In this document: positions 11,069 to 49,392 of the stretch, one piece after another
Numbering within the stretch: position 1 is the first letter of the stretch
How the letters are laid out: every line of letters starts with the position of its first letter
Assembly: GCA_021813945.1 (NCBI GenBank)
Contig: JAKAJD010000001.1
Coordinates: 335,072 to 399,071, forward strand
Source: a bacterium
GTDB lineage: Bacteria > Patescibacteriota > Microgenomatia > Curtissbacterales > GWA2-41-24
Reading direction: 5' to 3'
Length of the DNA stretch: 64,000 nt
Program-made: the position numbers and the translations under genes
The notes under the pieces: generated by a model
The model's database searches: none
What the model saw: the letters and a program-made list of their open reading frames with translations, nothing else
What the model was told of the DNA's origin: nothing

Positions 11069-11637
11069 GAATTGTCTCCTCCCGGCGGTTTGGCAGCAGA
11101 ACTTCCATTAAGTTGGCTAGATATACTAAAGGTATAGACACCGTCTTGGTCTGAGCTTAAAGAATCTATATTTACATTTGAAATTATTTTGGAGCCTGAG
11201 TCAGAAGCAAGAGACGATATAAATCCGGCAATGTCAGCGGATGTTTTTGCTTTTCCAGAAAACGTTGCCTTGGCTCCTGTAAATTTTATATCCGTGAAAT
11301 AAACATTCTGGGGAACCAATTGAGCAAACTGAGAAAAAACGTTAACCTGGTCAGATCTGCCACTCAGTACCTTTTCAGCAACAGATGCTTTGTCCTTTGT
11401 CACAACCACCAGTGCCTCGGTATCTTTAAGCGAATTTATCTCGGCAGTACTTGATTCAATTTCGTTCTCTATCTTTGCTCTACCTGAAGCATACCTTGTA
11501 AACATCACAAGCGTTACCACCCCGAAGGCAGCAACCAAAACCAAAACAAGAGCCGAAAACAATGTGAGCTTCTTGCGAATACCCTCAGCCGCTTCCGATC
11601 CCTTATCTTCAACCGGCAATAAATTTATATCAGGCAT
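11065..11637 (-). CDS. pilN: type IV pilus assembly protein PilN
   Basis: N-terminal INLLP motif followed by a single TM helix. Sits directly downstream of pilM. Confidence 0.7.
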   Translation of the reverse strand: MPDINLLPVEDKGSEAAEGIRKKLTLFSALVLVLVAAFGVVTLVMFTRYASGRAKIENEIESSTAEINSLKDTEALVVVTKDKASVAEKVLSGRSDQVNVFSQFAQLVPQNVYFTDIKFTGAKATFSGKAKTSADIAGFISSLASDSGSKIISNVNIDSLSSDQDGVYTFSISSQLNGSSAAKPPGGDNS

Positions 11638-11675
11638 CTTAATTTAGCGTAACAAAAGCTACATTTCAAAACAAC

Positions 11676-12695
11676 CTAAACTCTTTGTGCGAGCCCAGTT
11701 GCAACTGAATAAAAACTACCCTGACCCGGAATTTTCAAAATCACACCTTCCTTTTCAAAGTTCAGCCAAGGGTCTCCCAATGAAACCTCCAAACTTGTCC
11801 TGGTGGTTAAATACTCCGACAATCCTGGCAAATAAGCTCCACCTCCACAAACTATGATTCTTGAAAAAACCGTTCCCTGCAAATGATTTCTGGAATACTC
11901 AAGAGCCTTGAGGATCTCCAAAACTACTACTTCCAAAAGAGGCTTAAGTACGTTTGCCACTTTTCCCCCAAGCTGATCGGGCAACACTCCGTAAGTATGT
12001 TTATATTGCTCTGCTTGTACTTGGCCCATGTTAAATTCTGCCATCACAGCACGAGTCAAAGCATACCCACCGGTTGAAACTGATCTTGTAAAAAGCACGT
12101 TTCCTCCCTTAACCAAAACAAGCTCGCACGATGCAGCACCCAAAGAAACAATAACTGCCGGCAAATCGGAGGGCGTAGTCAATGCTCTAGCAAGAGAGCT
12201 GGATTCGGTTTCCATTGCTGAAAGATTCAAATCGGAATCGCGAACCAGTTTTACGTATTTTTCCACGATTCGCTTTGGGGCAGCAACCAAAAGCACATCC
12301 ATCATCCCGCTTTTGCCTAAAGCCGGCTTGGATACAACCTGATACTGCAAATTAACATCTTTCAAGGGAAGTGGAATATACTGATCAGCCTCCCAATTGA
12401 TAGCAGAAGAAAGCTCTTTGTCGGTAAGGTTAGGCATCTGAATCAGCCTTGTCACCACTTGCGACTCAACAATTGAAACATTACATTTATTGCCTTTTAC
12501 ACCAGAAGAGCGAACAACTGCCTTTATCGCCTCGGATACTTTTTTCATTTCCATTGGAGCATCTGTCTGAATCCCACCAGCAGGTGTCGGAGCATTTGCT
12601 GCCGCCGACAAAATTTTCTTTTTCCCAGAAACCTTAACTTCTACTACTTTAATAAATGACCTTCCTATATCTAGGCCAAATACATCGTTTGCCAT
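11676..12695 (-). CDS. pilM: type IV pilus assembly protein PilM (actin-like ATPase fold)
   Basis: N-terminus GLDIGRSFIKVVE. FtsA/PilM-like two-domain pattern. About 340 aa. Confidence 0.85.
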   Translation of the reverse strand: MANDVFGLDIGRSFIKVVEVKVSGKKKILSAAANAPTPAGGIQTDAPMEMKKVSEAIKAVVRSSGVKGNKCNVSIVESQVVTRLIQMPNLTDKELSSAINWEADQYIPLPLKDVNLQYQVVSKPALGKSGMMDVLLVAAPKRIVEKYVKLVRDSDLNLSAMETESSSLARALTTPSDLPAVIVSLGAASCELVLVKGGNVLFTRSVSTGGYALTRAVMAEFNMGQVQAEQYKHTYGVLPDQLGGKVANVLKPLLEVVVLEILKALEYSRNHLQGTVFSRIIVCGGGAYLPGLSEYLTTRTSLEVSLGDPWLNFEKEGVILKIPGQGSFYSVATGLAQRV

Positions 12696-12704
12696 AATAA
12701 ACCT

Positions 12705-13013
12705 CTATTGCGCCGAAGGGCTGCCCTGCGGCATTGTTTGGGCTGAAGAACTGGCAGGTTTGGGAATTGGAGTAGATACGACGACAGGAGCTGATGAAGG
12801 TTGAGAGTTGACTATATTTTCAATTGAACCGGTATCAAGGTTGCGGTTATTGTTTGATTGAGATGGTGAGGTGTTTACTTTCGGGCTCAAAAACAAAAGA
12901 AGCAGCGCTGGAATTATAATCGCCCCAAGACCAACTAAAGAAAGTAGAATTTTGGCAGTTTTGCTCATAACTTTATTTAAGGATGTCTCCCTCGGAAAAC
13001 ATTGTGTAGTCAA
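12705..13013 (-). CDS. hypothetical small membrane protein
   Basis: One TM helix and a Ser/Pro-rich tail. Overlaps the upstream gene by 41 nt. Weak support. Confidence 0.3.
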   Translation of the reverse strand: MTTQCFPRETSLNKVMSKTAKILLSLVGLGAIIIPALLLLFLSPKVNTSPSQSNNNRNLDTGSIENIVNSQPSSAPVVVSTPIPKPASSSAQTMPQGSPSAQ

Positions 13014-13839
13014 AAATAGCCGGCATCATTGGAAGTGCAGTTCTTTTTACCTGAACTGCACGAGTTACACCCGCATTACTGGAAGCTGACGAGGAGATAT
13101 CATAAGTTTGCACGGGCAAATCAAACCCCACACCGAAAACTTTCACTGTCGTACTGGCCCAAAACGGTTTAATACGCAAAGCAAGTGGGGTACTTGAAGT
13201 AACTGCAACCCGTATACATTGCGTATACCCGTCAGAAGGTGGGCTGGGACAAGAAGACGTTCCAAATGTATTAATGCCTAATGTTTCGTTTGGTCGGGTA
13301 GAGGGATTTGGTACATACCACCTCATCATGCCGTATGAAGAAGACCCGTACAATTGTCCTATCTCCAAAGAAGCTGGCCCTCCGTTGCTATTTTCTGCTG
13401 AGCCTTTAGCCCAGTGAACTTCAACTTGAGAAGCTGGTGGATTTACCAGGCCGGTTAGATCAATTTGTCCGACTTCACCCAGTTCCACCTTGCTTTCGTA
13501 AACCTTTGAACCTTTTACATTAACGCTGGCAGTAATATCAGAAGAAACTGGTACGCTACACGTTGCCGTACTGCCTACAACTGAGCATCCCGATGTACTG
13601 GTGCCTAATTTAATATCGCTAGAAATTTTCGTAAGCTTAGATAAAACATCCTCAACCCCACCTTCAGCAGCCCCAAATGCCCTTTGCGATTCTTTGGTCT
13701 GTGTAGATGTTCTCAAATTGACTATATTTCTGGAAGCAACAGAAAGACCAACAGCCAAAGCAACAACCACAATAAGAAGTACCAATATCAAAATTTGGCC
13801 TGATTTCATCTTCCTCATTCTATTGTCAGGCGTCACCAC
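12973..13839 (-). CDS. PilX-like minor pilin or pilus-associated protein
   Basis: N-terminus KSGQILILVLLIVVVALAVGLSV followed by RAFGAAEGG. This resembles the PilX N-terminal domain. Confidence 0.5.
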   Translation of the reverse strand: MVTPDNRMRKMKSGQILILVLLIVVVALAVGLSVASRNIVNLRTSTQTKESQRAFGAAEGGVEDVLSKLTKISSDIKLGTSTSGCSVVGSTATCSVPVSSDITASVNVKGSKVYESKVELGEVGQIDLTGLVNPPASQVEVHWAKGSAENSNGGPASLEIGQLYGSSSYGMMRWYVPNPSTRPNETLGINTFGTSSCPSPPSDGYTQCIRVAVTSSTPLALRIKPFWASTTVKVFGVGFDLPVQTYDISSSASSNAGVTRAVQVKRTALPMMPAIFDYTMFSEGDILK

Positions 13840-13906
13840 TCACTTGTCAAATACCCACCTTGGCTCACACCTTAGTCCTTCGTCGTTATTCGTTAAGACC
13901 TCATAT

Positions 13907-14566
13907 CTAATACGTCCTCAGCGATATCGTGGTATTAAAATTGGCAGATGCCATAAAATCAGCTCTAGTGGGAGCATCAAGCCCTTGAGAAGCAGTAAAC
14001 TGGACAGAAACAACAGCTGGGATATTGGAGCCTTGTGATGCTGATTTTGAAGTCACACCAAACGAGCAGTTAGTAATTTCCACCCCTTTGACTCGATCGT
14101 CATTGCTCACAGAAATAAAGTTAGAGTCAGAAGGTGAGCCGGAAGCCATAGACACCGACCCAATACGATCATTTTGAGTAGCGGTTGAACTTAAGCACTT
14201 TATGTAAAGTGGATCGTCATTTGGCCTGGTTAAAACAATAGTTGTGTAATTCGGGCCAGCACCAATCCCGGCTACATTAGTTGCACCACGTATTTGCTTA
14301 TCCAAAGAATCCAAAACGGCCTGGCCGTTTTGCTTAACCTCTTGTGTAATATTTGTTTGATTTGCACCTCTTAATGTGGAATTCAAAAAGAGCATTATCG
14401 ATCCAAGCAAAAATCCCAAAACCCCCAAAACAACCACAAATTCAATTAAAGTGAAGCCGTATGGGCGAACTTTAATATCAGATCGCAACTGCGAAGCTGA
14501 TCTAAGCGTAAAACCCTCAAAAGTTTTGATTTTTGACCTTTGAATTTTGAGTTTATGGTAGGGCAT
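13907..14566 (-). CDS. type IV pilin-like protein (minor pilin or pseudopilin); the true start is probably downstream of the annotated Met
   Basis: Class III signal motif G/FTLIEFVVVLGVL with Glu at position +5. The annotated ORF carries a 37-aa leader, which is unusually long. Confidence 0.65.
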   Translation of the reverse strand: MPYHKLKIQRSKIKTFEGFTLRSASQLRSDIKVRPYGFTLIEFVVVLGVLGFLLGSIMLFLNSTLRGANQTNITQEVKQNGQAVLDSLDKQIRGATNVAGIGAGPNYTTIVLTRPNDDPLYIKCLSSTATQNDRIGSVSMASGSPSDSNFISVSNDDRVKGVEITNCSFGVTSKSASQGSNIPAVVSVQFTASQGLDAPTRADFMASANFNTTISLRTY

Positions 14567-14590
14567 TATCTAAACTATAGCACGAAAAAC

Positions 14591-15043
14591 TTACGGCCCC
14601 TGCCACAAAGAAAGGATCGTATGACTGGTAACAGTTTGGGTACCACCAGAATCAATCCACTGCACAGTTGCCGTTATAAGCTTTGTGTTTAAATCAGTAC
14701 CGTCAGCAATTGCAAGCTGTCTTGTGAAATTCATACCACCCTCAACTAGTGTTTGAGGGCAACTTCCGCCATCTGTTAAAGTCCAAGAACTGGGATCTGA
14801 ACTTGGCATATTTATAATGTAGCATGAGTTATTTGAAAGGGCACCATAGCCTTGTCTATCCCTAAAAACTCTAATTTCCTCAATATATTCCTCAGCAAGC
14901 TTAGTAGCCTGCGCGTTACTTCTGGCAGTACGCGCAGTTTTATTCGAAACTAAGCTTGCAGAAATAATGGCAACCGCTAAAATTGCCGCAATTCCAACGC
15001 TAACTATGACCTCAATTAAAGATTGACCATCAACCTGCTTCAT
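14591..15043 (-). CDS. type IV pilin-like protein (minor pilin or pseudopilin)
   Basis: MKQVDG/QSLIEVIVSVGIAAIL prepilin-type leader with Glu at position +5. Confidence 0.65.
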   Translation of the reverse strand: MKQVDGQSLIEVIVSVGIAAILAVAIISASLVSNKTARTARSNAQATKLAEEYIEEIRVFRDRQGYGALSNNSCYIINMPSSDPSSWTLTDGGSCPQTLVEGGMNFTRQLAIADGTDLNTKLITATVQWIDSGGTQTVTSHTILSLWQGP

Positions 15044-15630
15044 TGAACTTCACCAGCAGATGTCATGACAACATTGCTCGTGCCTTCAGAAGAAGAGAGA
15101 GTTACAGTAAAATTATTCTGCGGCGTAGTCCCATACAAATTCAAAAGAGAATCATCACTAGTGTTTATAAATGGGGTCGCACTGTGAAAAGTAACACCAT
15201 CCTTTAAATGTCTAAACAATTCATAAGCCGGTCCTGAAATAGACGTAGAACCATAAGCCATACCAGCCACGGTAACACCCGCCGGAAGGGTTACAGTTGA
15301 CGTGCCAAATGTAAATAAAGGACCTCCGCTTGCAATGGGCAATGTCTCGCATAAACCTGTCATAGTAATCTGATTGCTTGCAATAGTCAAAGTAACATAC
15401 CACCCCACAAGCCCACCGTTAGTTGCCGCACACTGCGATTTTCCAGACAAAGCATTATTTTGAGCCTGACGCACAGTGTTTTTTAAAACACTTGCCGCCT
15501 CCGTTAGCCTTTGCCGCTTCTCAAACGAAAGAAACGCTGCCGAAACGCTTGCTCCAAGTATTGCCATTAGAGAAATCACGATCAAAAGTTCCACAAAAGT
15601 AAAACCCGTTCTAAAATTTGGAATTTGCAT
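15040..15630 (-). CDS. type IV pilin-like protein (FimT/PilE-like minor pilin); start placed at the internal Met MQIPNFRTG/FTFVELL
   Basis: Prepilin motif G/FTFVELLIVISLMAIL. The longer ORF running to 15714 would overlap pilD by 46 nt. Confidence 0.6.
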   Translation of the reverse strand: MQIPNFRTGFTFVELLIVISLMAILGASVSAAFLSFEKRQRLTEAASVLKNTVRQAQNNALSGKSQCAATNGGLVGWYVTLTIASNQITMTGLCETLPIASGGPLFTFGTSTVTLPAGVTVAGMAYGSTSISGPAYELFRHLKDGVTFHSATPFINTSDDSLLNLYGTTPQNNFTVTLSSSEGTSNVVMTSAGEVQ

Positions 15631-15668
15631 TTTCGAAGAAAAAGTCTTCAATTTGGAATTTGGAATTT

Positions 15669-16466
15669 TCACAACAGTGCCCTCGTATACCAACTCAAAA
15701 CAAGCTCGCCCCAAAAAAGTGCAATTAAAAATCCGGCAACTAGAAACGGCGCAAATGGCACGGTTTGTCCAAATTTTTTCCGCCTTATGGCAATTAAGAT
15801 CAAGGAAAATAAAGCACCTAAAAAGAAAGCCAAAAACACCGCTACCAATACCCCTCGAATACCCAGTACTATGCCCATCAAAAATGCCAGAACAATATCC
15901 CCCTGACCCATACCTCGTCCACGAGTCGCAACAACTATTATCAAAAAGAAAAGTCCCGCACCAAAAGCAGCCATAATGTTTTCAATAAAAACCGCTGAAG
16001 ATAAGAAAAAATAATTATAGAATAAGGAAACGATAGCAGCAGCAAACACAAAAGTCGTCGGAATAAGTGAGAATTTCCAATCAACCACTGCAACCACCAC
16101 AACAGTCGAAACCAAAAATAGAATGTAGAAAGATGTGATTAGATCAAAATTCCCTGATTCAGCCAAATACCAAAAACTGACTGCAAAAAGAATAGCAGTT
16201 ATTGTTTCGACGATAGGGTATTGCCAGGAAAGTGGCTTTTTGCAATAACGACATTTTGCCCGAAGAACCGCAAAGCTTAGAAGCGGAACTAAATCAAATG
16301 TGCCTAGCTGGGCCTTACAGTAATCACAATAAGACCTACCCATAATTGTTTCGCCTCTGGTAGTCCTGTCGATAACAACATTCAAAAAACTGCCGACCGC
16401 CGAGCCTAAAATGAAAAAGATAATAAGATAAAGAACCACTACCTTGATAGTAGCCTTATTAGACAC
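15669..16466 (-). CDS. pilD: prepilin peptidase / N-methyltransferase PilD (A24 family)
   Basis: GTG start. N-terminal CxxC...CxxC zinc motif (CDYCKAQL...CRYCKKPL). Multi-TM body with conserved Asp residues. Confidence 0.88.
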   Translation of the reverse strand: MSNKATIKVVVLYLIIFFILGSAVGSFLNVVIDRTTRGETIMGRSYCDYCKAQLGTFDLVPLLSFAVLRAKCRYCKKPLSWQYPIVETITAILFAVSFWYLAESGNFDLITSFYILFLVSTVVVVAVVDWKFSLIPTTFVFAAAIVSLFYNYFFLSSAVFIENIMAAFGAGLFFLIIVVATRGRGMGQGDIVLAFLMGIVLGIRGVLVAVFLAFFLGALFSLILIAIRRKKFGQTVPFAPFLVAGFLIALFWGELVLSWYTRALL

Positions 16467-16522
16467 ATTCTGACAAGTTGAACCTATTTAAGCTAAAGTT
16501 TTTCTGCTAAACTTGCAAGTAG

Positions 16523-18667
16523 GTGATCTGGAAAATCTTAAAAAACTACTGGCCAGGGATAACAATCACAGTAGTAGTATTCGCTTTTCTATCAAACTTA
16601 TTCTTTCCAAGATTATCTCTTTTGGTCACTCCAGATTACGGAAGAAGCGATTCATGGAGTCTATCTATAGCAGACAGTTATTACTATGCCCAAGAACTTA
16701 AAAATAATCACTTTCCAATTTGGAATCCTCACATTGGAAATGGTTTTCCTACATTTGCAGAAGGTCAGACGGGTGAACTTTACCCGTTAAATTTTGTATT
16801 GTTTAGAATCTTGCCATTCCCACTTGCATATAACCTTACCATTACATTTACATTAATTATCGCTGCAACAGGTGCTTATCTTTTTTGCCGCTCCCTAAAA
16901 ATCTCAAGATATTCTGCAACATTTGCAGGTCTAATATTTTCTCTTGGAGGGTTTTTCGTTTTTCACCTACAGCATCACGCTCTAATAGAAACAGCATCAC
17001 TTTTACCGTGGTTATTTTGGGCAACTAATGAATTTATTAATAGTAAAAAAATTAAATTTCTACTCTTCATAAGTATCTTTTCATCTCTTCAAATTCTCTC
17101 CGGATTTCCACAGCTAGCCTTTTATGCTGAAGTTTCAATAGCTTTATATGTTTCACTACATTCCATCTTCAATAAATCAGCTAAACTTAAACCCCTAATC
17201 TTAGTCGTTTGTGCAATCATACTTGGACTTTTCCTGGCATCGATTCAACTTCTTCCAAGCTACGAATTCTTGAAACTGTCCACAAGATCAGCCAATCCAG
17301 GTGAAATTCTTTCTCAATTTCCTTATTTACCAAAAAATTTGCTACAGTTTTTAAACCCGTTCATACTCGGCAGTCCAAAAGACGGAACATACCCACTATG
17401 GCAACCTGGAAAATGGGGTATATTTTGGGAAAGTTCGGCATATATAGGAGTTCTTCCGCTAATCCTGGGTCTAGGCACAATATTTGGAACTGTTTTTAAA
17501 AGCAAAAAAAATATTATTGTTTTTTGCATGTCTGGGATTTTTGCGCTCACCCTATTGCTTGCTTTGGGAAAAGAATCACCACTTTATGTTATCTTCACAA
17601 TTCCACCATTTTCACTTTTTAGAGTCCCTTCAAGATTTTTACTCCCTGCCAGTTTCGCGCTTGTAACATTAAGCGCAATTTACCTTGATAAATTAAAAAA
17701 GTCCGTTGCCCTTCTTTTCATGACTCTATCTATTTTGGATATTTTTATATTCCTTAAAAACTATAATCCTACTCTAGAAGCCAGTGCACTTCTAAAAAAA
17801 CCAAAAACGGCACAATACTTAAGTGAAAACTTAGCTTCAAATGTCTATACCGTCGGAACAGTTAGCAAATGGAACGAAAGCTTTGTTAAAAACGGGTGGG
17901 GGAGCATCAAAAAATTTTTCTTTTTCAAAAATTATCTCGACCAAAACTCAAACTTAATTTTTAATATTGACCAATTCTCTGCTTATGAAAGTATCCAAAC
18001 CAGAAGACAGGCATTTTTGAAATCGCAAATTGCAAACAACATAAAATTTGTAAACCAAAAGTACTATTTCTCCGATAAAGCCATCAAGCTGCTTGCTGCC
18101 ACAAATACTAACCATATAATAAGTCCTTATGAGATAAACTCCTCGCTTGTAGACAAAGTGTTTACTTACCAGGAAGAAAATGGCAAGGTGAATATCTACA
18201 AAATTAAAGACTCGTTAGATCCGATTTTTCTTAGCAAAGAAGCTACAAGCGTCGAAACAATTCCAGATATTACAAGCGCTATTTCAAATGCCAACTTTGA
18301 TCCGCAAAAAGCTCCACTGGTGGAAAACCAAATAAGCCTGACCGGAAACGAACCTCGAACTTCACGACTTCAACTGATCAAACAATCCTCAACGGAAGTT
18401 ACTACAAAAACTCAAACCTCCGGTCCTCAAATTCTCACTTACAACCAAACTATTTACCCGGGATGGGAAGCTTATCTAGACTCCCAAAAAGTGGCAATTA
18501 TCCCATCAAATATAAACTCGATGGCAATAGAAATTCCAGAAGGTGATCATGTCATTACCTTTAGGTATTTCCCCAGAACCCTTGTTGTCGGTTTGCTAAT
18601 CAGTTTTGCGTCAGTGCTGATAACTTTAATGACTTTTTTAAAATATAGAAATCTTAAAGTAAGCTAG
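16523..18667 (+). CDS. large polytopic membrane protein, YfhO-like / GT-C-fold glycosyltransferase candidate
   Basis: 714 aa. At least ten hydrophobic segments in the N-terminal two thirds. Soluble C-terminal domain. Confidence 0.5.
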   Translation: MIWKILKNYWPGITITVVVFAFLSNLFFPRLSLLVTPDYGRSDSWSLSIADSYYYAQELKNNHFPIWNPHIGNGFPTFAEGQTGELYPLNFVLFRILPFPLAYNLTITFTLIIAATGAYLFCRSLKISRYSATFAGLIFSLGGFFVFHLQHHALIETASLLPWLFWATNEFINSKKIKFLLFISIFSSLQILSGFPQLAFYAEVSIALYVSLHSIFNKSAKLKPLILVVCAIILGLFLASIQLLPSYEFLKLSTRSANPGEILSQFPYLPKNLLQFLNPFILGSPKDGTYPLWQPGKWGIFWESSAYIGVLPLILGLGTIFGTVFKSKKNIIVFCMSGIFALTLLLALGKESPLYVIFTIPPFSLFRVPSRFLLPASFALVTLSAIYLDKLKKSVALLFMTLSILDIFIFLKNYNPTLEASALLKKPKTAQYLSENLASNVYTVGTVSKWNESFVKNGWGSIKKFFFFKNYLDQNSNLIFNIDQFSAYESIQTRRQAFLKSQIANNIKFVNQKYYFSDKAIKLLAATNTNHIISPYEINSSLVDKVFTYQEENGKVNIYKIKDSLDPIFLSKEATSVETIPDITSAISNANFDPQKAPLVENQISLTGNEPRTSRLQLIKQSSTEVTTKTQTSGPQILTYNQTIYPGWEAYLDSQKVAIIPSNINSMAIEIPEGDHVITFRYFPRTLVVGLLISFASVLITLMTFLKYRNLKVS

Positions 18668-18704
18668 TGCTGAATTAAAATCCAAAAGTGTTTAGAATCA
18701 AATT

Positions 18705-20024
18705 GTGACAATTTTAGGAATTTCAATACTGTTGATTTTCTTCGCGACAACGCCAAATTTAGGTTTTTTTACAATTCCGTCTATTTTAACAGTTACATCA
18801 GTAATTCTTATTTTAATTTTAAACACGTCAAGCCTCATAAAAATAAAGTCGTTTGACATAAAGAGTGAGAAGGTTCTCACAATTTACTTATTCTTCATCC
18901 TGCTGTTTTATTCCGCAATTTACTATGGTGGTCTTTATCAAAACAAGAATTCGATAGTTTTAGGTTATTTTGTGCTAACAGGTTTCATTCTCATAAATTT
19001 CATCCGGTATCATTTTTTTAAAAAAACTTTCTCTTTTATATTCATTTGCACTGTATACGTCCTAATGTCTCTTTGGACGATTTTCAACTCTCCACACCCC
19101 GTAGTTGATACTGTAGTAGTTTTAAAAGAAGCACCGCAGATGTTAATTAGGGGAAAAAATCCTTATTCCTCAACCTTCACACAAGTTTATCCTAACGTAA
19201 ATCCCAACTATTACAATTATCTTCCTTTTAGTTTTTTCTACGAATTACCCTTTGTACTTTTATTTAAAGATCCCCGATCAGTGATCGTCTTTTCAAATTT
19301 GCTTTCTGCGATTTTAATCTACAAATTATTTAAAAAAACAGACAAGGAGCGTGTCATAAATGTTTTCGTTCTAACATTCTTATTCCTTCCCAGGACTTTC
19401 TATATGCTCGAACATGCATACCTGGATCCGGTAATCTTCTCCTTCTTCCTTCTCTTCATTTTTTTCTATGTGAACAAAAATAAAAACAAATTTGCATATT
19501 TATTTTTGGGATTGTTCCTTTCATTCAAGCAACCACCCATACTAACCATTCCGCTATTTTTAAAAGAGAACTTTTTTAGGAAAGACTTTTTTAAATTAAA
19601 AAATTTTTCGCTTTTCCTGCTACCCCTAATACTGCCATTAATTTATTTAGCAATAAACAGTAAGGCGTTTTTGGAAGATATCGTTTTTGGACTAAATCCA
19701 GCTAAGATTACCAGTCCTATTTCCTCAAGTCTAACATTGCCAACTCTTTTGAAATATCTCAGTATTAACGCAAATTTTGCTTATCTAATAGGGTTAATTC
19801 TATTTGCAGTAACTTTTATTTATCTGTTTTTTAAAAAAACTTCACCTTTAACAAAAATCGTTATAACATTTCTCGCCTTCAACTATTTTACCTATCATGC
19901 TTTTTTCAATAGCTATTTTCTGGTAATTCAATTTTTGCTGTTAGCAATTACAACCGAATATTTTGGGCAGGCAGATAAAGCACATTCGAAAAAGTCATTG
20001 CAACTTTTCCATCTGGGATCTTAA
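18705..20024 (+). CDS. polytopic membrane protein, possibly a GT-C-like glycosyltransferase
   Basis: 439 aa and almost entirely hydrophobic helices. No soluble-domain motif recognised. Confidence 0.45.
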   Translation: MTILGISILLIFFATTPNLGFFTIPSILTVTSVILILILNTSSLIKIKSFDIKSEKVLTIYLFFILLFYSAIYYGGLYQNKNSIVLGYFVLTGFILINFIRYHFFKKTFSFIFICTVYVLMSLWTIFNSPHPVVDTVVVLKEAPQMLIRGKNPYSSTFTQVYPNVNPNYYNYLPFSFFYELPFVLLFKDPRSVIVFSNLLSAILIYKLFKKTDKERVINVFVLTFLFLPRTFYMLEHAYLDPVIFSFFLLFIFFYVNKNKNKFAYLFLGLFLSFKQPPILTIPLFLKENFFRKDFFKLKNFSLFLLPLILPLIYLAINSKAFLEDIVFGLNPAKITSPISSSLTLPTLLKYLSINANFAYLIGLILFAVTFIYLFFKKTSPLTKIVITFLAFNYFTYHAFFNSYFLVIQFLLLAITTEYFGQADKAHSKKSLQLFHLGS

Positions 20025-22046
20025 CAAACGCTGTGCTTCATCATCATATTGTTTTGCTAAAGCTTCGTTAGACTCACACCGCCTGGCTTCATCTGCTAAT
20101 TCGTTTAAAACTCTCACGTTTGTCTTGTTTAACCTATACGATTTTTCAAGATAATCTTTTGCCTCCTGGCATTCTCCTAATTCCAAATCAGATCGGCCAA
20201 CCCCAAAAGAAGCTCTTGGATCATCTGGTTGTATCAAAAGTGCTATCGTGTAATACTTTTTAGCATCCCCATAATTATTAGCCACTAACATTTGGTCACC
20301 AACTTCATTGAAAGAAAAAGAATAAAATCGTTTTATACTTTGCTCTATAAAATTGCTATATCCCCAAGTCGGATAGTTTCCTTTCATTTCCATTGAGGCA
20401 AACGCTTTCTCGTTTAGCTCCCTTATGTACTCCTTGTCCTTAATCTCGCCTTCCGGAACAAGCTTTTTTAATAGACCGCTAACGACCCAACCGTATCCTT
20501 CTATCTTTGGAGAATATGAAACTGTGTAAATCGGCACTTTATTTATATTTGACCTTATGAGTTGCTCCATGTAAGCTGCGCTTTGAGCTTCGGTAGTATC
20601 AAAAAACCCCAAAGGGAAGGTAAGATCTGGATATTCTCTTGCAAGCTGCTGTCTGTAAAAAAAATGCCTCAAAATCCCGCCTAATACTATTTTTCTGTCT
20701 CTAAATCGATCGCTAGTATAGTAAATATACTCTGTATTGAAAGCAGTCGTATCGTCGAACAAAAAAATGAGAGAGCCCGGTTCAGACGAAACTAATACGT
20801 CGTGTCCGAGCCAATCACCTAATTGGAATCCAGACATATCGGCTTTGGGCCAATTTGTCCTAAACATATAAAGAGGTATCAAGAAAAATGACAATCCCAA
20901 AATCAAAAGACCCAACTCTTTTTTTAACTTAATCCTTTTGAAAATTTTTGGGCTCACTTGATAAAGAAACAGTAATCCAAAAGCAAAATCAATCGTCAGA
21001 AAAAAATAGCTCAGGAGAATAAATCGTTCCCAAATTCCAAAAAGAAAATCAGATGAAAGAGAAAAACTTGAGTAAAAAAGAAAAATTGGACCGGAAACAA
21101 ATACTGCCAAGATCAAAAACCAGAAAAGTTTACGTTCTTTGAAAAAAGTATATACAGCACCCAAAATGATAAAAAATGATCCAATTAAACCGAAGTCGCT
21201 TTTTAAAAAAGCAAGATACGAGGCCACTTGAAGAAGTCTGGCTTTGTAATCCATCCCGACAAAGTCTTGCGATGCCGCAAAAGTACCATAGTCTGCCCTC
21301 GTTATCAAATGTAATAAGTTTCCAACATTCACGGCGTAATCCCAGTTAACCGGCGTATGCCTCAAAGCCAAAAGCGGAACAGCTAAATATGGAATTCCAC
21401 CCAATAAAAACGTTAATCCCAAAACAGCGGCCTTTTTTGAAATTTGGGTGTAAGTTCTTTGCGTCTTATGTATCAAATATAAATATGCAGGAAGAACCAA
21501 AACCGATGTTTGGTGATGAAAAACAGCAAGCCCAAGAAAAAAAATGCTTAAAAAAAGCCACTTCTCAAGTCTTATTCGTATCTCCTTCTTGTAAGCAACT
21601 CCCGTGATCCATAAAGTCAAAAAATAGAAACTTGCAGAAATCAAAAGAAGATTAAGCTGAAATACTTCAGTCACATGTGCATAAAGCCAAAAAAGGGGAG
21701 TAAAAGCCAGCGCCAAAGAAGCTGTAAGGGCAATAAAGTAACTTTTGGTTAGATTCCGAAGCGAAAGAAAAAGAAACGCAAGCGTCCCTGCAGAAAAAAA
21801 GGCCATCATCAAACCGGTTCGGTATGCAATGCTTCCGGCAATTGGTAAGTGGGTAAACAAAAAACCAAGAAGGGAATTCAACGGATATCCAGGGGGATGG
21901 GCAACGCCTCCAAAATATGCGGCCAAAATAACATCTCCGCTATCACCACCATAAACGGACGAAGAGACACCTAGCAAATAAATGAAAAAGGCAGCGGCAA
22001 AAAGAAAAATGGCGAGAAAGAACTCAAGCTTAAGCCTAAAAATCAC
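19995..22046 (-). CDS. GT-C-like polytopic membrane protein with C-terminal TPR repeats; candidate pilin O-glycosyl/oligosaccharyl-transferase
   Basis: N-terminal region of about 450 aa with multiple TM helices. C-terminal TPR-like repeats (YYTIALLIQPDD...EAKDYLEKSYRLN). Immediately downstream of pilA on the same strand. Confidence 0.5.
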   Translation of the reverse strand: MIFRLKLEFFLAIFLFAAAFFIYLLGVSSSVYGGDSGDVILAAYFGGVAHPPGYPLNSLLGFLFTHLPIAGSIAYRTGLMMAFFSAGTLAFLFLSLRNLTKSYFIALTASLALAFTPLFWLYAHVTEVFQLNLLLISASFYFLTLWITGVAYKKEIRIRLEKWLFLSIFFLGLAVFHHQTSVLVLPAYLYLIHKTQRTYTQISKKAAVLGLTFLLGGIPYLAVPLLALRHTPVNWDYAVNVGNLLHLITRADYGTFAASQDFVGMDYKARLLQVASYLAFLKSDFGLIGSFFIILGAVYTFFKERKLFWFLILAVFVSGPIFLFYSSFSLSSDFLFGIWERFILLSYFFLTIDFAFGLLFLYQVSPKIFKRIKLKKELGLLILGLSFFLIPLYMFRTNWPKADMSGFQLGDWLGHDVLVSSEPGSLIFLFDDTTAFNTEYIYYTSDRFRDRKIVLGGILRHFFYRQQLAREYPDLTFPLGFFDTTEAQSAAYMEQLIRSNINKVPIYTVSYSPKIEGYGWVVSGLLKKLVPEGEIKDKEYIRELNEKAFASMEMKGNYPTWGYSNFIEQSIKRFYSFSFNEVGDQMLVANNYGDAKKYYTIALLIQPDDPRASFGVGRSDLELGECQEAKDYLEKSYRLNKTNVRVLNELADEARRCESNEALAKQYDDEAQRLLRSQMEKLQ

Positions 22047-22130
22047 TTTTTTATTCTAAACTATCGCTAGTCCATAAAAAAGCACGGCAACCCATACGAC
22101 GTCACCGTGCTTTTTAATAATTCTCAGAGC

Positions 22131-22610
22131 TTATGGTGTACAACTACCTGATGTAATCTCAGTTGCCTTACCGGATGTTGATTCCCAACACCACAGCCAA
22201 TTTCCGACGCCTGAGTTAGGGTCTTCAAGTGTTGCATAAACAGCAGCTTCCGTCGTCGCAGCATTCAAAGTTATACAGTAGTCCTCAGCTGCACCACCAA
22301 TTCCAGGTCCTGTAGGTATCTGTTTCAAATCACCTTTTGCAGTGAGAGTCTGCAATGCACCGGCCCCTGAACCACATCCACCACCACCTGGGTAAGATCC
22401 TTGCCCTGGTGTTGTGTAGTAAGCCTGAAGAGCAGTTGCGATTTGTCCAACATCACTCTTTCGGGTCGCGTCTTTAGCCTGTTTTGTTCTCTTTCCGGGA
22501 TTTGCGGCAACCAAAACTGCTGCAGCCAAAATACCAAGGATTGCAATAACGATAAGAAGCTCGATTAATGTAAAACCACGAAGAAATTTCTTTTGGGCAG
22601 TAAAAATCAC
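22131..22610 (-). CDS. pilA: type IV major pilin
   Basis: Leader MIFTAQKKFLRG/FTLIELLIVIAILGILAA with Glu at +5. Two C-terminal Cys residues (disulfide loop). Ser/Thr-rich C-terminus ESTSGKATEITSGSCTP. Confidence 0.85.
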   Translation of the reverse strand: MIFTAQKKFLRGFTLIELLIVIAILGILAAAVLVAANPGKRTKQAKDATRKSDVGQIATALQAYYTTPGQGSYPGGGGCGSGAGALQTLTAKGDLKQIPTGPGIGGAAEDYCITLNAATTEAAVYATLEDPNSGVGNWLWCWESTSGKATEITSGSCTP

Positions 22611-22778
22611 TAAATTATCTCACCTCCCTCTGGAATAAAAAATATTCCTCTCCAATTAAAGTATGATTCAATTTAGCTTTCTTTGTCAAGCAAAAAGAAG
22701 TGATTAAAATTGGCTTGTCAGATTTAGGCCCGCAACGTAGTGAGGACAGCAATTTAACTTCCTTATTATTTAGATTAT

Positions 22779-23990
22779 TTAGAATTGTGAAGTTAAATTA
22801 TAGATTGGAAGTATTATCGAAAGGACCAATATTCCAACTCCTAAACCCAAAATAACCAAAATTATCGGCTCAAGTGCTGTGGTTAAATTACGGATCGAAT
22901 TTTCGCTTTCACCCTCAAAGTAAAGCGACAGCCTTCCCAAAACTTCATCCATTTTGCCAGTTTCTTCCCCAACTCTTATCATTTGCGAAATAATTGGCGG
23001 AAAAGCAGGGTCGGCAGCCAATGGCTGAAATAAAGGTGAACCACGCTCTACTCTGGCAATAGCTTTATCTATACCTTCCTGGTACGATGGCGACGAGAGT
23101 ATATCCCGAACAACCCTCAGCGCCGAAATAATTGGGATTCCGGTCCCGATAAGAAGTCCTAAGGTTCTTGTAAATTCAGCTAGGATCAAAGTCTTTCGAA
23201 TCTTTCCCCAGATTGGCAAGCTTAAAACAATCCTCGACATTATTTTAGCTCCAGTTGGCGTTCTGGAAAAAACTTTAAGGCCATAAATGGCACATGCAAT
23301 AACAATAATAAGAAGCCACCAAAAAGATCGCAAAAAATTAGACATTGCAATAAGAATTCGGGTAGGCAGTGGCAATTGGGTTCCTATTTGGCTATAAAGG
23401 CCGGTCAGCTTTGGAATAACAAAAATCATCATTAAAACCATCACAACTATCATGACGGTTACAACAATGGAAGGATAAATAAACGCACCTCTTGTTTTAG
23501 ATTTAAACTCGCGCTCTTTTTCTAGTGATTGCGCCAGCTTTGAAAGGACTTTATCTAAAACTCCTCCGGTTTCACCGGCCTCGATCAACTTTACGTATAC
23601 AATTCCAAAAACCCTGTCGTGCTTTCCTAGTGCTTGGGAAAGCGAAAGGCCTCCCTCAACATCCGAAACAACTTCTCCTAAAATTCTTGCAAAGGTTCCG
23701 CTTTTTGTCTGCTTTTGCAAAATGATCAAAGCATCGGTTAGGGGCAATCCCGCAGAAACCATTGTCGAAAGCTGTCTTGTAAAATTGACAACCTCCGATG
23801 AGGAAACACCTTTTCCAATATTTAAAATGGAAATGTTTATAACCTGCTTTTTTTCTCTACTTCGAACCTCAATTGGAATCAACTTTTCCTGTTGCAGGAT
23901 TTTAACCAAGGCATTTTCATCAACCGCCTCCACCTCACCTGTAAACTTTTTACCAGTTGAATCTTTTGCAACAAATTTAAAAAGAGGCAT
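22779..23990 (-). CDS. pilC: type IV pilus platform protein PilC (two GspF domains)
   Basis: About 400 aa with duplicated T2SS-F domain architecture. Characteristic N-terminus MPLFKF.AKDSTGK. Confidence 0.9.
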   Translation of the reverse strand: MPLFKFVAKDSTGKKFTGEVEAVDENALVKILQQEKLIPIEVRSREKKQVINISILNIGKGVSSSEVVNFTRQLSTMVSAGLPLTDALIILQKQTKSGTFARILGEVVSDVEGGLSLSQALGKHDRVFGIVYVKLIEAGETGGVLDKVLSKLAQSLEKEREFKSKTRGAFIYPSIVVTVMIVVMVLMMIFVIPKLTGLYSQIGTQLPLPTRILIAMSNFLRSFWWLLIIVIACAIYGLKVFSRTPTGAKIMSRIVLSLPIWGKIRKTLILAEFTRTLGLLIGTGIPIISALRVVRDILSSPSYQEGIDKAIARVERGSPLFQPLAADPAFPPIISQMIRVGEETGKMDEVLGRLSLYFEGESENSIRNLTTALEPIILVILGLGVGILVLSIILPIYNLTSQF

Positions 23991-23992
23991 AG

Positions 23993-25063
23993 CTATTGCT
24001 GGGAAACTTCGCCCTTATCAACAAGTCTTTCAAGCTCCTCTGGCCTTATACTGTAAGCCCTGGCTGTTTCAAGTGATAATCTACCGGCTTTAACGAGATA
24101 GGCAAGGGAAGCATCCATTAAAATCATCCCCGAAGCGCCAGACGTTTGGATGATATTATCAATTTGGTGGGTTTTGCCATCTCGGATTGCGGTTTGGACA
24201 GCCGGGGAAGAAAGCAAAATCTCGGCAACCGGAAGCCTGCCTCCGCCAATTGCAGGAACAAGACGCATCGAAACAATCCCCGCCATCGTTGCTGCCAACT
24301 GCAACCTAACCTGTGCTTGTTGGGTTTCCGGAAATACATCAATTATTCGGTCAATTGACTGTGATGCTGAATTCGTATGCAAAGTCGCAAAAACCAAATG
24401 TCCTGTTTCGGCAACTGTAATAGCAGATGCAATCGTTTCAAAATCACGCATTTCACCAACTAAAACTACGTCTGGATCCTCACGAAGTGCAGATCTTAAG
24501 GCAATTTCCCAGGAATGTGTATCCAAATGCATTTCCCGCTGGGAAACCAAGGCTTTACCTTTTGGATAAACGTATTCAATCGGATCCTCAATTGTCAAAA
24601 CATGAACAGGCCGTGTCTGGTTAATCTCGTTGATAATAGATGCAATTGTCGTCGATTTTCCGTGACCCGTGGGGCCAGTCACCAAAATAAATCCTTGCCT
24701 GAGTTTTGCAAAGCTATGGCAAATTCGCGGCAAATTCAATTCTTCTATTGTCTTGATATAGGAAGGGATAAGTCTTAAAGCTGCCGAGAGATAACCTTTT
24801 TGGTAATACGCGTTGACCCTGAACCTTGCAACTTCGCCAAGCGCAAACGAAAAATCGATTTCCTTGTTGACAGAAAGCATCTCCTTTTGTTCAGGAGAAA
24901 GTAACTCATACACCAAATTTTCAGTATCATCCGACGTCAAAAGGGCAGATGCAATCGGGAGAAGCTGCCCGTCAATTCTAATAACTGGGGGCGAACCAAC
25001 CACCAGATGTAAATCCGACGCTTCCTTTTTAACAACTATTTCCAAATACTCTTGTATCGACAT
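23993..25063 (-). CDS. pilT: twitching-motility retraction ATPase PilT
   Basis: Walker A motif GPTGHGKSTT. Asp box and His box. PilT-type N-terminus. About 355 aa. Confidence 0.9.
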   Translation of the reverse strand: MSIQEYLEIVVKKEASDLHLVVGSPPVIRIDGQLLPIASALLTSDDTENLVYELLSPEQKEMLSVNKEIDFSFALGEVARFRVNAYYQKGYLSAALRLIPSYIKTIEELNLPRICHSFAKLRQGFILVTGPTGHGKSTTIASIINEINQTRPVHVLTIEDPIEYVYPKGKALVSQREMHLDTHSWEIALRSALREDPDVVLVGEMRDFETIASAITVAETGHLVFATLHTNSASQSIDRIIDVFPETQQAQVRLQLAATMAGIVSMRLVPAIGGGRLPVAEILLSSPAVQTAIRDGKTHQIDNIIQTSGASGMILMDASLAYLVKAGRLSLETARAYSIRPEELERLVDKGEVSQQ

Positions 25064-25124: not shown

Positions 25125-26885
25125 TCATTCTTCTGCCACTCTCAAAACTTCCTCAATTGTCGTTATTCCCTCGACAACTTTCAAAAATCCGTCTTGTTTC
25201 ATAGTTATCATACCGTCTAAAATTGCCTGGTTTTCAATAGCCTGAGAAGTTTCATGGCCAATAATCATCCTTGATATTTTCTCAGTCACAACTAGAGCCT
25301 CAAAAATTCCAATTCGCCCTAAATAGCCTGTGTTGTTACATTCAGGGCAGCCTCTACCGCTAAATAGAGTGACCTTTTTTTTGAAATCATATAGATTTCC
25401 CAAGACAGTTTGCAGCCGGTCCAAAGCTTCCTTGGTAACCGGTTTTGGGACTTTGCAAGAAGGGCACGCTCTTCTAACAACACGCTGGCCCATAACAGCC
25501 GTCACCGTCGAAGCAATAAGATAAGGCTCTGCGTGCATATCCAAAAGCCTGGGCAGCGCCCCAGCGGCGTTATTGGTGTGCAGGGTCGAAAAGACCAAGT
25601 GACCAGTCAAGGAAGCCTGTACGGCAAGCTCAGTTGTTTCTGCATCACGAATCTCTCCAACCATCAAAATATTAGGATCTTGCCTTAAAATCGACCTCAA
25701 ACCAGATGCAAAAGTTAAACCTGCTTGTGGATTTATCTGGACCTGGTTAACACCTGGGATTTGATACTCAATTGGATCTTCAAGGGTAATAATATTGACC
25801 CTTGTTGAATTAAGCTTTGAAAGTATTGAGTAAAGTGTAGTTGTCTTACCGGAACCGGTAGGCCCTGTAATTAGAATAATTCCATGAGGTCTTAAAATCG
25901 TCTCTTCTATATTGGCAAGTGCTTTGCCCCGAAGACCCAATTCCGGAAGAGAAGGCACGCCACCGGTTTTTTTAAGAAGCCTCATAACGACCTTTTCACC
26001 AAATGCAGTGGGGAGCGTAGAAATACGCAAATCCAATTCCTCCCGCCCAATTTTAAAATTGAAGCGGGCGTCTTGAGGAATACGCTTTTCATCAATTTTC
26101 ATATTGCCCAAAATTTTGATTCTGGAAACAATTGCTTCGTGAATTCGCTTTGGCAAAATTAGCTTTTCGTGCAGGATTCCATCAATTCTGTACCTCACTC
26201 GAGTCTCGTTCTCCAAAGGTTCTATGTGAATATCGGAAGCCCTAACTTTAATACCGTACTCAAGTAGGGTCGAAACAATCCTTGCAACGGGCGCCTCCCC
26301 TAAAACTGCCGTTGCTTCAGGCTGCTCTATGTAAGTTTTAGAGGCCCCTGTTGTAGTTTCCTTAAGCGCTTCTGTGACCTCTGTCGAAAGACCTCTGGTG
26401 TATTGTTCGGAAATCGCCTTAATAATAGAGGGGCCGGTAGAAATATACGGCTTTACCGAAAGGCCGGACTTTTTCTCCAAAAACTCTAAAGTCTGCAAAT
26501 CCAAGGGGTCAACCATGGCAACCGAAAGAGTTTCCTTATCTTTTGCAATCGGAATAACCGTAAAACGCTTTGCTACATCTTCAGGGATATATCCTAAAAC
26601 TTCAGGAGAAATAGGCTGTTCAGAAGGCTCAAAAAACTCAACTCCAATAGCCTCCGCCTTTGCCTTAACCAGCTCTTCATCGCTCACCCAGGCCATCTGA
26701 GAAAGAACCTGCTCTGGCGTTTCTTGTCGCCTTTTTGCTTCGTTTTTTACAAATGAAAGCTGCTCAGAGGTGATAAGCCCACGCTTTGCCAAAACATCCT
26801 CAATAGAAAATCCAAAGCCGGAGCCTGGATAACTCGTACCAGTTTGGGCAGTAGTTGGCATTGCAAAGAAAGTACACAAAACCAC
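25125..26885 (-). CDS. pilB: type IV pilus assembly ATPase PilB (GspE family)
   Basis: Walker A motif GPTGSGKTTT. Tetracysteine zinc motif CPSC...CPEC. N-terminal GSPII domains. Confidence 0.9.
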   Translation of the reverse strand: MVLCTFFAMPTTAQTGTSYPGSGFGFSIEDVLAKRGLITSEQLSFVKNEAKRRQETPEQVLSQMAWVSDEELVKAKAEAIGVEFFEPSEQPISPEVLGYIPEDVAKRFTVIPIAKDKETLSVAMVDPLDLQTLEFLEKKSGLSVKPYISTGPSIIKAISEQYTRGLSTEVTEALKETTTGASKTYIEQPEATAVLGEAPVARIVSTLLEYGIKVRASDIHIEPLENETRVRYRIDGILHEKLILPKRIHEAIVSRIKILGNMKIDEKRIPQDARFNFKIGREELDLRISTLPTAFGEKVVMRLLKKTGGVPSLPELGLRGKALANIEETILRPHGIILITGPTGSGKTTTLYSILSKLNSTRVNIITLEDPIEYQIPGVNQVQINPQAGLTFASGLRSILRQDPNILMVGEIRDAETTELAVQASLTGHLVFSTLHTNNAAGALPRLLDMHAEPYLIASTVTAVMGQRVVRRACPSCKVPKPVTKEALDRLQTVLGNLYDFKKKVTLFSGRGCPECNNTGYLGRIGIFEALVVTEKISRMIIGHETSQAIENQAILDGMITMKQDGFLKVVEGITTIEEVLRVAEE

Positions 26886-48421: not shown

Positions 48422-48438
48422 TATCTAAATTATTATAC

Positions 48439-49332: not shown

Positions 49333-49340
49333 AATCTTTC

Positions 49341-49392
49341 GTTAAGGCCTGGCCCTAAAGTTTGATTTTCCCAGCCTAAAGGCCAGGCCTTT
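49341..49392. repeat. intergenic palindromic repeat element, copy E (inverted orientation)
   Basis: GTTAAGGCCTGGCCCTAA, 19-nt spacer, AAAGGCCAGGCCTTT. Located between the sucC-like stop and the sucD-like start. Confidence 0.65.

Follow-up and report, generated by a model that had tools for sequence, protein, structure and literature searches.

Why would three large polytopic membrane proteins be encoded in the middle of a locus that otherwise serves type IV pili? The question arises from a 64-kb window (the whole 64,000-nucleotide stretch of contig JAKAJD010000001.1 analyzed here) from an ultra-small, Curtissbacteria-like bacterium of the Patescibacteria. Three open reading frames (ORFs) separate its pilD and pilA genes: ORF1 (16523-18667, plus strand; 714 amino acids [aa]), a YfhO-family GT-C glycosyltransferase; ORF2 (18705-20024, plus strand; 439 aa), a predicted GT-C protein whose uncurated family lies next to GT87 (PimE) and PIG-M; and ORF3 (19995-22046, minus strand; 683 aa), a TMEM260-family GT-C protein and predicted protein O-glycosyl (probably mannosyl) transferase. 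The prepilin peptidase gene pilD (15669-16466, minus strand; Pfam A24_N_bact, 8.5e-29, and Peptidase_A24) forms the downstream edge of a variable slot, and pilA (22131-22610, minus strand; Pfam N_methyl, 1.4e-8, and the NCBIfam prepilin domain) encodes a candidate major type IV pilin of 159 aa. An earlier sequence-only reading of this stretch had proposed a dedicated GT-C system that modifies the pilin. That is also the reading that we favor: this is, on balance, probably a pilin-accessory glycosylation cassette in which the pilin is the substrate of ORF3. The bases for it are the enzyme families, the conservation of active-site residues in ORF3, the domain architecture, the conserved linkage to a pilin gene, and the variability of the cassette.

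The arrangement described in the sequence-only reading holds exactly. The three ORFs lie where it had placed them, with ~9, ~11, and ~11 transmembrane (TM)-like segments by hydropathy for ORF1, ORF2, and ORF3, respectively, and ORF3 starts 84 nt after the stop codon of pilA on the same strand. ORF1 and ORF2 face ORF3, and ORF2 and ORF3 are convergent, their 3' ends overlapping by 30 nt. The GT-C-like character of the proteins is borne out as well, by Pfam for ORF1 and ORF3, by a family profile and Foldseek for ORF2, and by a fold search for ORF3, and none of the three was assigned to a family other than glycosyltransferases.

ORF3 matches the Pfam family PF11028 (TMEM260-like, formerly DUF2723) at 99.1 bits against a cut-off of 24.2, and its residues 12 to 484 align with human TMEM260 (9rql_A; phmmer E value, 1e-32). 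In the human enzyme, activity is abolished by mutating D52 or H67 of the sugar-recognition motif, R264 or Y267 of the donor-loading loop, or D441, the general base, which lies in the Rossmann-like domain, while a mutant of R355, in TM helix 10, has ~20% activity (preprint 10.64898/2026.03.17.711096; PMC10214176). The HMMER alignment gives the ORF3 equivalents of D52, H67, R264, Y267, R355, and D441 as D35, H50, R250, Y253, R341, and D432, and in an alignment of 29 bacterial homologs reaching down to 28% identity these are kept in 29, 29, 29, 28, 29, and 29 sequences, respectively. The loop-1 sugar-recognition motif (24 residues) is nearly letter-identical to that of human TMEM260.

The predicted structure of ORF3 follows the same plan. 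In the AlphaFold2 (AF2) model (predicted local distance difference test score [pLDDT], 89.5), helices extend to residue 402 and are followed by a five-stranded alpha/beta domain (409-550) and six TPR-type helices (566-682); the human protein is divided into TM (24-415), Rossmann-like (416-564), and TPR (565-706) domains (preprint 10.64898/2026.03.17.711096). Comparison of the domain boundaries shows that the layouts agree: an 11-TM GT-C core, an alpha/beta domain, and a TPR domain. The C-terminal TPR repeats, which the sequence-only reading had already noticed, also appear as sub-threshold Pfam TPR matches at 580-660. In a structure search, the folds nearest to the ORF3 model were protein-glycosylating enzymes, with Pmt4 and Pmt2 the closest. 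By sequence and architecture, then, ORF3 is a member of the TMEM260 family. Because the four mannose-contacting residues and the phosphate-contacting residue of the human enzyme are all kept, mannose is the likeliest sugar, and ORF3 most likely takes it as a polyprenyl-phosphate hexose. A tblastn search of plasmids with ORF3 returned just four weak Bacteroidales DUF2723 matches and was uninformative.

The second feature on which this reading leans is the company that the ORF3 gene keeps across genomes. We compared 87 loci, 7 of them on homolog contigs that were looked up and 80 from a scan of species-representative genomes, and counted a prepilin link when an ORF with a prepilin motif lay <400 bp upstream of the TMEM260-like gene on the same strand. 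Seven of seven ORF3 homologs (65% to 33% identity) sit directly after one or more pilin genes inside a pilus locus, and all seven loci share one order: gyrB, pilB-pilT-pilC-pilin(s)-TMEM260-like gene, then, beyond the slot, pilD-minor pilins-pilMNO, and trmD. In the full sample, 41 of the 87 loci are pilus linked and 32 have a prepilin ORF within the 400-bp limit; the adjacency of pilA and a GT-C gene is thus conserved in relatives. The distance from the pilin gene to the TMEM260-like gene is 87 to 250 bp across several groups of Patescibacteria, and the adjacency persists in several such groups from 68% down to ~25% identity, also after rearrangement of the locus. All but one of the pilus-linked loci (40/41) belong to Patescibacteria by record label or shared gene order (Curtiss-, Gottesman-, Woese-, Levyi-, and Roizmanbacteria and others); the borderline exception is L071 (Auribacterota), where pilB/T/C are 6 to 8 kb away. 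The remaining 46 of the 87 loci have neither pilus genes nor YfhO nearby and come mostly from Verrucomicrobiota, Elusimicrobiota, Planctomycetota, Gemmatimonadota, Firestonebacteria, and similar phyla, together with a few short or different Patescibacteria contigs.

Approaching the locus from the side of ORF2 leads to the same pairing. Two ORF2 homologs (45% and 37% identity; loci L088 and L089) lie in a unit of pilin, TMEM260-like, YfhO, and ORF2-like genes, and in L088 this unit sits after nusB/rnc, away from pilB/C/D, with the pilin gene retained. Since the contents of the slot vary and the unit keeps its pilin when relocated, the conserved contact is the one between the pilin and the TMEM260-like gene, an arrangement that is far beyond chance.

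Many database labels in this sample appear to be wrong. Loci L009, L013, L016, L017, L019, L021, L026, L028, L030, L033-L035, L039, and L058 are labelled 'uncultured Gammaproteobacteria bacterium', but they show the Patescibacteria-type order of gyrB, pilus locus, and trmD, with proteins at most 52% identical to ORF3.

The pilA-ORF3 junction also has the form of a pilin-accessory cassette. A Rho-independent terminator between a pilin gene and its accessory gene, giving high pilin and low enzyme levels, is a hallmark of such cassettes in Pseudomonas and other genera (PMC11841053). Here, ORF3 directly follows pilA, and a terminator scan finds an intrinsic-terminator-like hairpin with a U-run in the gap between them (22076-22115, minus strand; AAAAAGCACGGUGAC...GUUGCCGUGCUUUUUU). 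The 116-nt gap region folds at -39.1 kcal/mol in RNAfold (z score, -5.2), and 0 of 200 shuffled sequences were equally stable. Not every related locus has such a hairpin, but at least nine do (L001, L002/L009, L007, L013, L011, L016, L032, and L048). The hairpin probably attenuates read-through into ORF3. Upstream of pilA lies a promoter-like site (22660-22689, minus strand; TTGACA-18-CATACT, matching 10 of 12 consensus positions in a pattern match only), followed by a ribosome binding site, GGAGGTG, read from the sequence. In the 56 nt that separate the divergent pilD and ORF1, a weak promoter-like site (16470-16499, plus strand) matches 9 of 12 positions, likewise as a pattern match only. 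Rfam and tRNA scans found nothing in the region.

In contrast to this fixed contact, the stretch between the TMEM260-like gene and pilD changes from locus to locus. Its length runs from 38 bp to >10 kb, and it may be empty or hold one small GT-C-like gene, YfhO by itself or together with an ORF2-like gene, or the larger set of L003. Of the 41 pilus-linked loci, 26 have an adjacent YfhO gene and 8 an ORF2-like gene. The three-transferase composition that the sequence-only reading had treated as a unit is therefore not one; the core is the pilin plus the TMEM260-like gene. In L003, the island (12073-21474) between the TMEM260-like gene and YfhO comprises a GT87-type gene, two methyltransferase genes, a DUF218 gene, RmlC- and RmlD-like genes, and two GT2 genes, and suggests a glycan containing a methylated deoxyhexose. 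The best matches of these GT2 genes are the polyprenyl/dolichyl-phosphate sugar synthases AglJ, PpgS, and Dol-P-hexose transferase, all under the curated cut-offs; a GT2 gene is also present in the slot of L089. In L088 (10314-13040) and L089 (12776-15493), a second pilin gene lies beside a gene for a 726- to 744-aa Wzy_C protein (of the family of the O-oligosaccharyltransferases PglL and TfpO), adjoining the TMEM260-like/YfhO/ORF2-like unit, and these genomes may run two different pilin glycosylation routes. A further variation concerns the pilins themselves: in L003, L004, and L005 (at ~8.0 to 9.9 kb), a pair of pilin genes precedes the transferase, and between the two lies a conserved gene of 251 to 253 aa with no Pfam match, which is not present in the window.

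The island of transferase genes also changes, by divergence or replacement, faster than its surroundings. L001 and L002 are two relatives at equal distance in housekeeping genes but strongly unlike in the island: compared with them, respectively, identity is 90% and 90% for GyrB, 89% and 88% for PilB, and 94% and 94% for PilT, against 65% and 52% for ORF3 and 63% and 36% for YfhO, while ORF2 has a partial match in the former and is absent from the latter; the pilB/T/C flank as a whole is 87 to 94% identical to both loci, versus 52 to 65% for ORF3. The GC content is 0.32 to 0.38 over the three transferase genes (16.5 to 21.5 kb) and ~0.43 in the flanks, a dip that may come in part from the Phe/Ile/Lys/Asn-rich composition of membrane proteins. 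Together, the faster divergence and the GC dip point to allele replacement in a diversifying cassette. An origin of the low-GC island as a mobile element was considered and rejected, as its borders show just short AT-rich chance repeats and no integrase. Given the variability of the slot before pilD, the glycan probably differs between strains.

The family of ORF1 is as the sequence-only reading had it. The protein matches Pfam YfhO (PF09586) at 45.7 bits (cut-off, 28.5; E value, 4.1e-12), nearly all of its homologs carry PF09586, and its hydropathy profile follows the usual YfhO plan: ~8 TM segments at the N terminus come before an extracytoplasmic domain of ~275 aa, and a TM anchor closes the C terminus. 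The NCBIfam PgfM2 model matched weakly (33.7 bits; cut-off, 1500). The GT-C transferases of the YfhO family take one sugar unit from an undecaprenyl-phosphate donor; lipoteichoic acid is the acceptor of some, and the members PgtC2 and PgfM1 are protein O-glycosyltransferases that act on Ser/Thr-rich regions of surface proteins (PMC12041528). The majority motif TPDYGRSD was considered as a source of catalytic residues but is not invariant among 27 homologs, and we therefore make no residue-level claim for ORF1.

ORF2 has no Pfam or NCBIfam match. Its family, with 1397 representatives at an E value of <=1e-30, yields a profile that matches GPI mannosyltransferase I (GPI-MT-I) in the PDB (E value, 4.5e-6). 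All of the top 12 Foldseek matches of its AF2 model (pLDDT, 91.9) are GT-C enzymes or their derivatives (PIG-U, PimE, GPI-MT-I, ArnT, and ALG6/12/3), with a TM-score of ~0.5 to PimE and GPI-MT-I. Pfam GT87 is matched by 4 of 35 close and 2 of 10 distant ORF2 relatives, just one of them above the cut-off. From these profiles and models, ORF2 is predicted to be a GT-C protein near PimE/GT87 and PIG-M that touches GT87 at the family edge, and by analogy we propose that it could elongate a glycan.

What would the cassette act on? PilA has the leader MIFTAQKKFLRG, followed by FTLIELL, and contains four cysteines. The sequence-only reading had pointed to a Ser/Thr-rich C terminus, and 8 of the 17 residues of ESTSGKATEITSGSCTP are indeed Ser or Thr. 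This end is not a free tail, however, but sits within the disulfide-bonded Cys-Cys (D-region) loop CWESTSGKATEITSGSC. A comparable loop rich in Ser, Thr, and Gly is found in transferase-adjacent pilins of other groups (such as CKSQTSGTAGTDCYYC), and alignment of the pilins of related loci shows Ser/Thr-conserved columns in YYT[TS]PG, xLT, [ST]E...ATL, and CWxS. Pilins are in general rich in Ser and Thr. The loop is compatible with the glycosylation model without proving it.

A number of observations weigh against a dedicated pilin glycosylation cassette. Pilin glycosylation as such is inferred from genes. The Ser/Thr enrichment of the last 25 residues of PilA, on which the earlier reading had drawn, is modest (~0.27 versus 0.19 overall). 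The acceptor sequon of human TMEM260 is P-x5-P-x3-G-P-x2-[GA]-G-G-x2-[ST]; its core, [GA]GGxx[ST], occurs in the PilA of the window (GGGCGS) but in none of the pilins of close relatives, and we rejected the human sequon as the acceptor rule here. An asparagine ladder was also sought, and the alignment of the ORF3 family contains no invariant Asn in the TPR region. With the sequon core unconserved and no such Asn, human acceptor recognition is not transferable, and a different acceptor rule is to be expected. Neither a donor-making GT2 synthase nor a GtrA-type flippase was found among all ORFs of >=110 aa in the window, so that the donor synthase and flippase must lie elsewhere in the genome; YfhO enzymes work together with partners of these two kinds, a GT2 polyprenyl-phosphate sugar synthase (CsbB/GtrB type) and a small flippase (GtrA/GtcA). 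The tie of ORF1 and ORF2 to the pilin is weaker than that of ORF3, because YfhO and ORF2-like genes are missing from many pilus-linked loci. Finally, the TMEM260-like genes of other phyla and of a few Patescibacteria contigs (L043 and the short L027 and L076) are not adjacent to a pilin gene, and since Patescibacteria keep long-range gene order well, the adjacency could in part reflect inheritance and not function.

Of the other explanations, the most credible, although clearly less probable than a dedicated cassette, is a system for general extracytoplasmic O-glycosylation of the kind known from Neisseria (PglL), actinobacteria (PMT), and streptococci (PgtC2/Pgf), with the pilin as one substrate among others or a minor one. 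PMT and the YfhO-type enzymes PgtC2 and PgfM1 act on many substrates (PMC12757957; PMC12041528), human TMEM260 modifies several receptor families (PMC10214176), acceptors could plausibly also be found among the minor pilins and other proteins of the envelope, and a general role would suit the phyla in which TMEM260-like genes have no pilin link. Yet a general enzyme would hardly be expected 87 to 250 bp after a pilin gene on the same strand in several Patescibacteria groups, in a terminator-type cassette whose unit moves together with its pilin on rearrangement, and a C-terminal TPR domain that binds the acceptor usually signals selective substrates (preprint 10.64898/2026.03.17.711096). It is unlikely that the target is not a protein at all but a teichoic-acid-like polymer, a lipoglycan, or a glycolipid, with the position in the pilus locus an inherited order lacking functional coupling. 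The flanking order from gyrB to trmD is strongly conserved in the lineage, PimE and PIG-M work on glycolipids, ArnT-like folds act on lipid A, and the YfhO proteins of Bacillus subtilis and Listeria glycosylate lipoteichoic acid (PMC5836110; restated in PMC12041528). The one characterized member of the ORF3 family, however, is a protein O-mannosyltransferase with which ORF3 shares six essential residues; the nearest folds are those of enzymes that glycosylate proteins; ORF3 is predicted to have alpha/beta and TPR domains suited to gripping a peptide and an invariant base, D432; and the pilin-ORF3 contact is kept while the slot content changes.

It is very improbable that ORF3 is mainly a non-catalytic factor for pilus assembly or stability whose TPR domain does the work, in the manner of PilF/PilW or TfpY-type proteins. 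Some pilin accessory genes, TfpY among them, encode assembly chaperones (PMC11841053), and the TPR region of ORF3 weakly resembles PilW and PilF, but the donor-binding and catalytic residues are essentially invariant in 29 divergent homologs, which makes such a role unlikely. Returning to the cassette reading, that ORF1 and ORF2 work on the same glycan as ORF3 is a proposition to which we give less weight than to the pairing of ORF3 with the pilin. The interpretation as a whole rests on computation, and from it we infer that the pilin is the acceptor, which sugar it receives, in what order the enzymes act, and what the glycan does (phage masking or tuning of attachment).

A mechanism for the favored reading would run as follows. 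PilA would be transcribed from its own strong promoter, and a leaky intrinsic terminator would pass a minority of transcripts on to ORF3. The 11-helix membrane part of ORF3 would bind a polyprenyl-phosphate hexose, most likely mannose, while its extracytoplasmic alpha/beta and TPR domains would grip the extended, membrane-anchored pilin emerging from the translocon; the sugar would then pass to a Ser or Thr of the pilin, with D432 as the catalytic base. ORF2 (PimE/PIG-M-like) and ORF1 (YfhO) might add more sugars outside the membrane from lipid-phosphate monosaccharide donors, for which PimE acting after PMT in actinobacteria and the streptococcal YfhO enzymes acting on Ser/Thr-rich regions are precedents. 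The variable slot between the transferase and pilD would make the resulting glycan strain specific.

Among the surface machines of the Patescibacteria, also known as the candidate phyla radiation (CPR), type IV pili are the best conserved. In cultivated members, these pili serve attachment to the host bacterium and motility, and pilin glycosylation was listed as an open question in a study of Saccharibacteria pili (PMC11623550). The locus offers a concrete, lineage-wide candidate enzyme and predicts a hexose on Ser/Thr of the pilin encoded just upstream. While pilin-accessory glycosylation cassettes are already known, this enzyme family had not been tied to pili or given a bacterial function; the literature search found no account of pilin-linked DUF2723/TMEM260-like genes or of pilin glycosyltransferases in CPR bacteria. 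Mutations of human TMEM260 are found in a congenital syndrome of heart and kidney, and the literature refers to the bacterial relatives of this enzyme just as 'distant homologs' (PMC10214176). The present proposal is the first specific substrate hypothesis for these bacterial homologs, and a small bacterial enzyme-substrate pair could be a tractable model for acceptor recognition. The variety of the slot (YfhO alleles, GT87-like genes, rhamnose/methyl-sugar genes, and an extra pilin with a Wzy_C protein) suggests selection on glycan diversity, as for phage evasion in Pseudomonas.

A broader model, which we offer tentatively as possible and short of probable, is that Patescibacteria possess a bacterial TMEM260 with a type IV pilin as its dedicated substrate, the glycan being built stepwise outside the membrane by up to three GT-C enzymes (a TMEM260-like initiator with GT87-like and YfhO extenders) from lipid-phosphate monosaccharides, with neither oligosaccharide assembly in the cytoplasm nor a Wzy_C transferase, and the slot serving as a strain-variable cassette that varies the pilus surface of these episymbionts against phages or for host recognition. 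If true, this would be the first function for any bacterial relative of TMEM260 and a possible evolutionary root of the human enzyme.

The setting of the three transferase genes is, as the sequence-only reading had it, otherwise purely one of pilus biogenesis, as recognized by Pfam. The conserved upstream flank consists of pilC (22779-23990), pilT (23993-25063), and pilB (25125-26885), all on the minus strand and identified by the set of T2SSF, T2SSE, and MshEN. On the other side, beyond pilD, the conserved downstream flank comprises, again on the minus strand, three minor pilins (15040-15714, 14591-15043, and 13907-14566; N_methyl), PilX (12973-13839; PilX_N), then a 102-aa ORF, and pilM/N/O (10262-12695; PilM_2, PilN, and PilO). 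The outer borders of the pilus locus are gyrA/gyrB/holB and trmD.

Elsewhere in the window, three other groups of genes on the minus strand deserve mention. Two large neighboring DUF4185 proteins (37130-39226, 698 aa, also with DUF5648; and 39217-42129, 970 aa, with a match at an E value of 1e-72 and a dockerin domain) resemble secreted glycan-active proteins, an unusual cargo in a genome of ~1 Mb, and are followed by a XerC/D-type integrase gene (42351-43280). Three genes in a row (47687-50578) encode a citrate synthase C-terminal domain (244 aa), a CoA_binding/Ligase_CoA protein (297 aa), and an ATP-grasp_2 plus Citrate_bind protein (400 aa); the trio looks like ATP-citrate lyase or citryl-CoA synthetase/lyase, which is unexpected for metabolically reduced Patescibacteria. 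A compact lipoprotein-processing cluster (58584-60320) combines lspA with a DksA/TraR-type zinc-finger gene and with an lgt-like gene whose 335-aa product matches LGT weakly.

How, finally, does the proposed cassette compare with known systems? With human TMEM260 (PF11028; PDB 9RQL-9RQN), ORF3 shares sequence homology, the six essential residues, the TM/Rossmann-like/TPR layout, and a catalytic side that faces away from the cytoplasm. The differences lie in the substrates: the human donor is dolichyl-phosphate mannose, whereas ORF3 would need a bacterial polyprenyl-phosphate sugar, and the human acceptor is the IPT domain, whereas ORF3, encoded in linkage with a pilin, presumably acts on a type IV pilin; neither the acceptor sequon nor the TPR asparagine ladder is recognizable in the bacterial system. 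The streptococcal systems (GtrB with PgtC2; PgfS/PgfM1/PgfE/PgfM2) resemble the cassette in having a YfhO-family GT-C protein like ORF1; the streptococcal enzymes transfer single sugars from undecaprenyl-phosphate sugars to Ser/Thr-rich extracytoplasmic regions, and the Streptococcus mutans genes are clustered with their adhesin substrates. The resemblance of ORF1 is at the family level, however, the window holds no partner GT2 synthase, and the partners of ORF1 are a TMEM260-like enzyme and a pilin.

The sequence-only reading had likened the locus to pilA-tfpO (pilO) of Pseudomonas. The gene arrangement sustains part of this analogy, since in the pilin-terminator-accessory cassettes of TfpO/PilO and PglL a membrane transferase gene also follows pilA and the pilin is glycosylated. 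The enzyme does not: TfpO is a Wzy_C protein that transfers en bloc a pre-assembled undecaprenyl-diphosphate-linked oligosaccharide, and no Pfam match to Wzy_C (PF04932) was found in ORF1, ORF2, or ORF3. Closer in form is TfpW of P. aeruginosa group IV, a 646-aa GT-C protein with 11 TM helices and a periplasmic TPR domain, encoded directly after pilA (bioRxiv 10.1101/2020.04.19.049825). It is near ORF3 in size (646 versus 683 aa), number of TM helices (~11), C-terminal TPR domain, and position next to pilA, and it adds D-arabinofuranose to Ser/Thr of the cognate pilin, the donor being a polyprenyl-phosphate monosaccharide. The TfpW motifs DDX (loop 1) and YX6PFX7P (near the TPR domain), however, occur in 0 of 29 ORF3 family members, where loop 1 reads GGDSGD, so that ORF3, compared here by published motifs and not by sequence, would be an analog of TfpW and not a member of its family. 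The sugar-contacting residues of ORF3 match those of a mannose-binding enzyme, and no genes for D-arabinofuranose biosynthesis were found among the Pfam-scanned ORFs of the window.

For the proposed division of labor among the three enzymes, a parallel is the actinobacterial pair of PMT (GT39) and PimE (GT87), in which PimE extends the protein O-mannose initiated by PMT (PMC12757957). There, too, initiating and elongating GT-C proteins act outside the membrane with a lipid-phosphate monosaccharide donor. ORF3 differs in belonging to the TMEM260 family and not to GT39, ORF2 is peripheral to GT87, and a third, YfhO-type enzyme is present; the actinobacterial system serves many secreted proteins, whereas here the genes are clustered with one substrate gene. 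By these analogies, TfpW and the actinobacterial PMT/PimE pair, and not TfpO, appear to be the best models for the Patescibacteria cassette.

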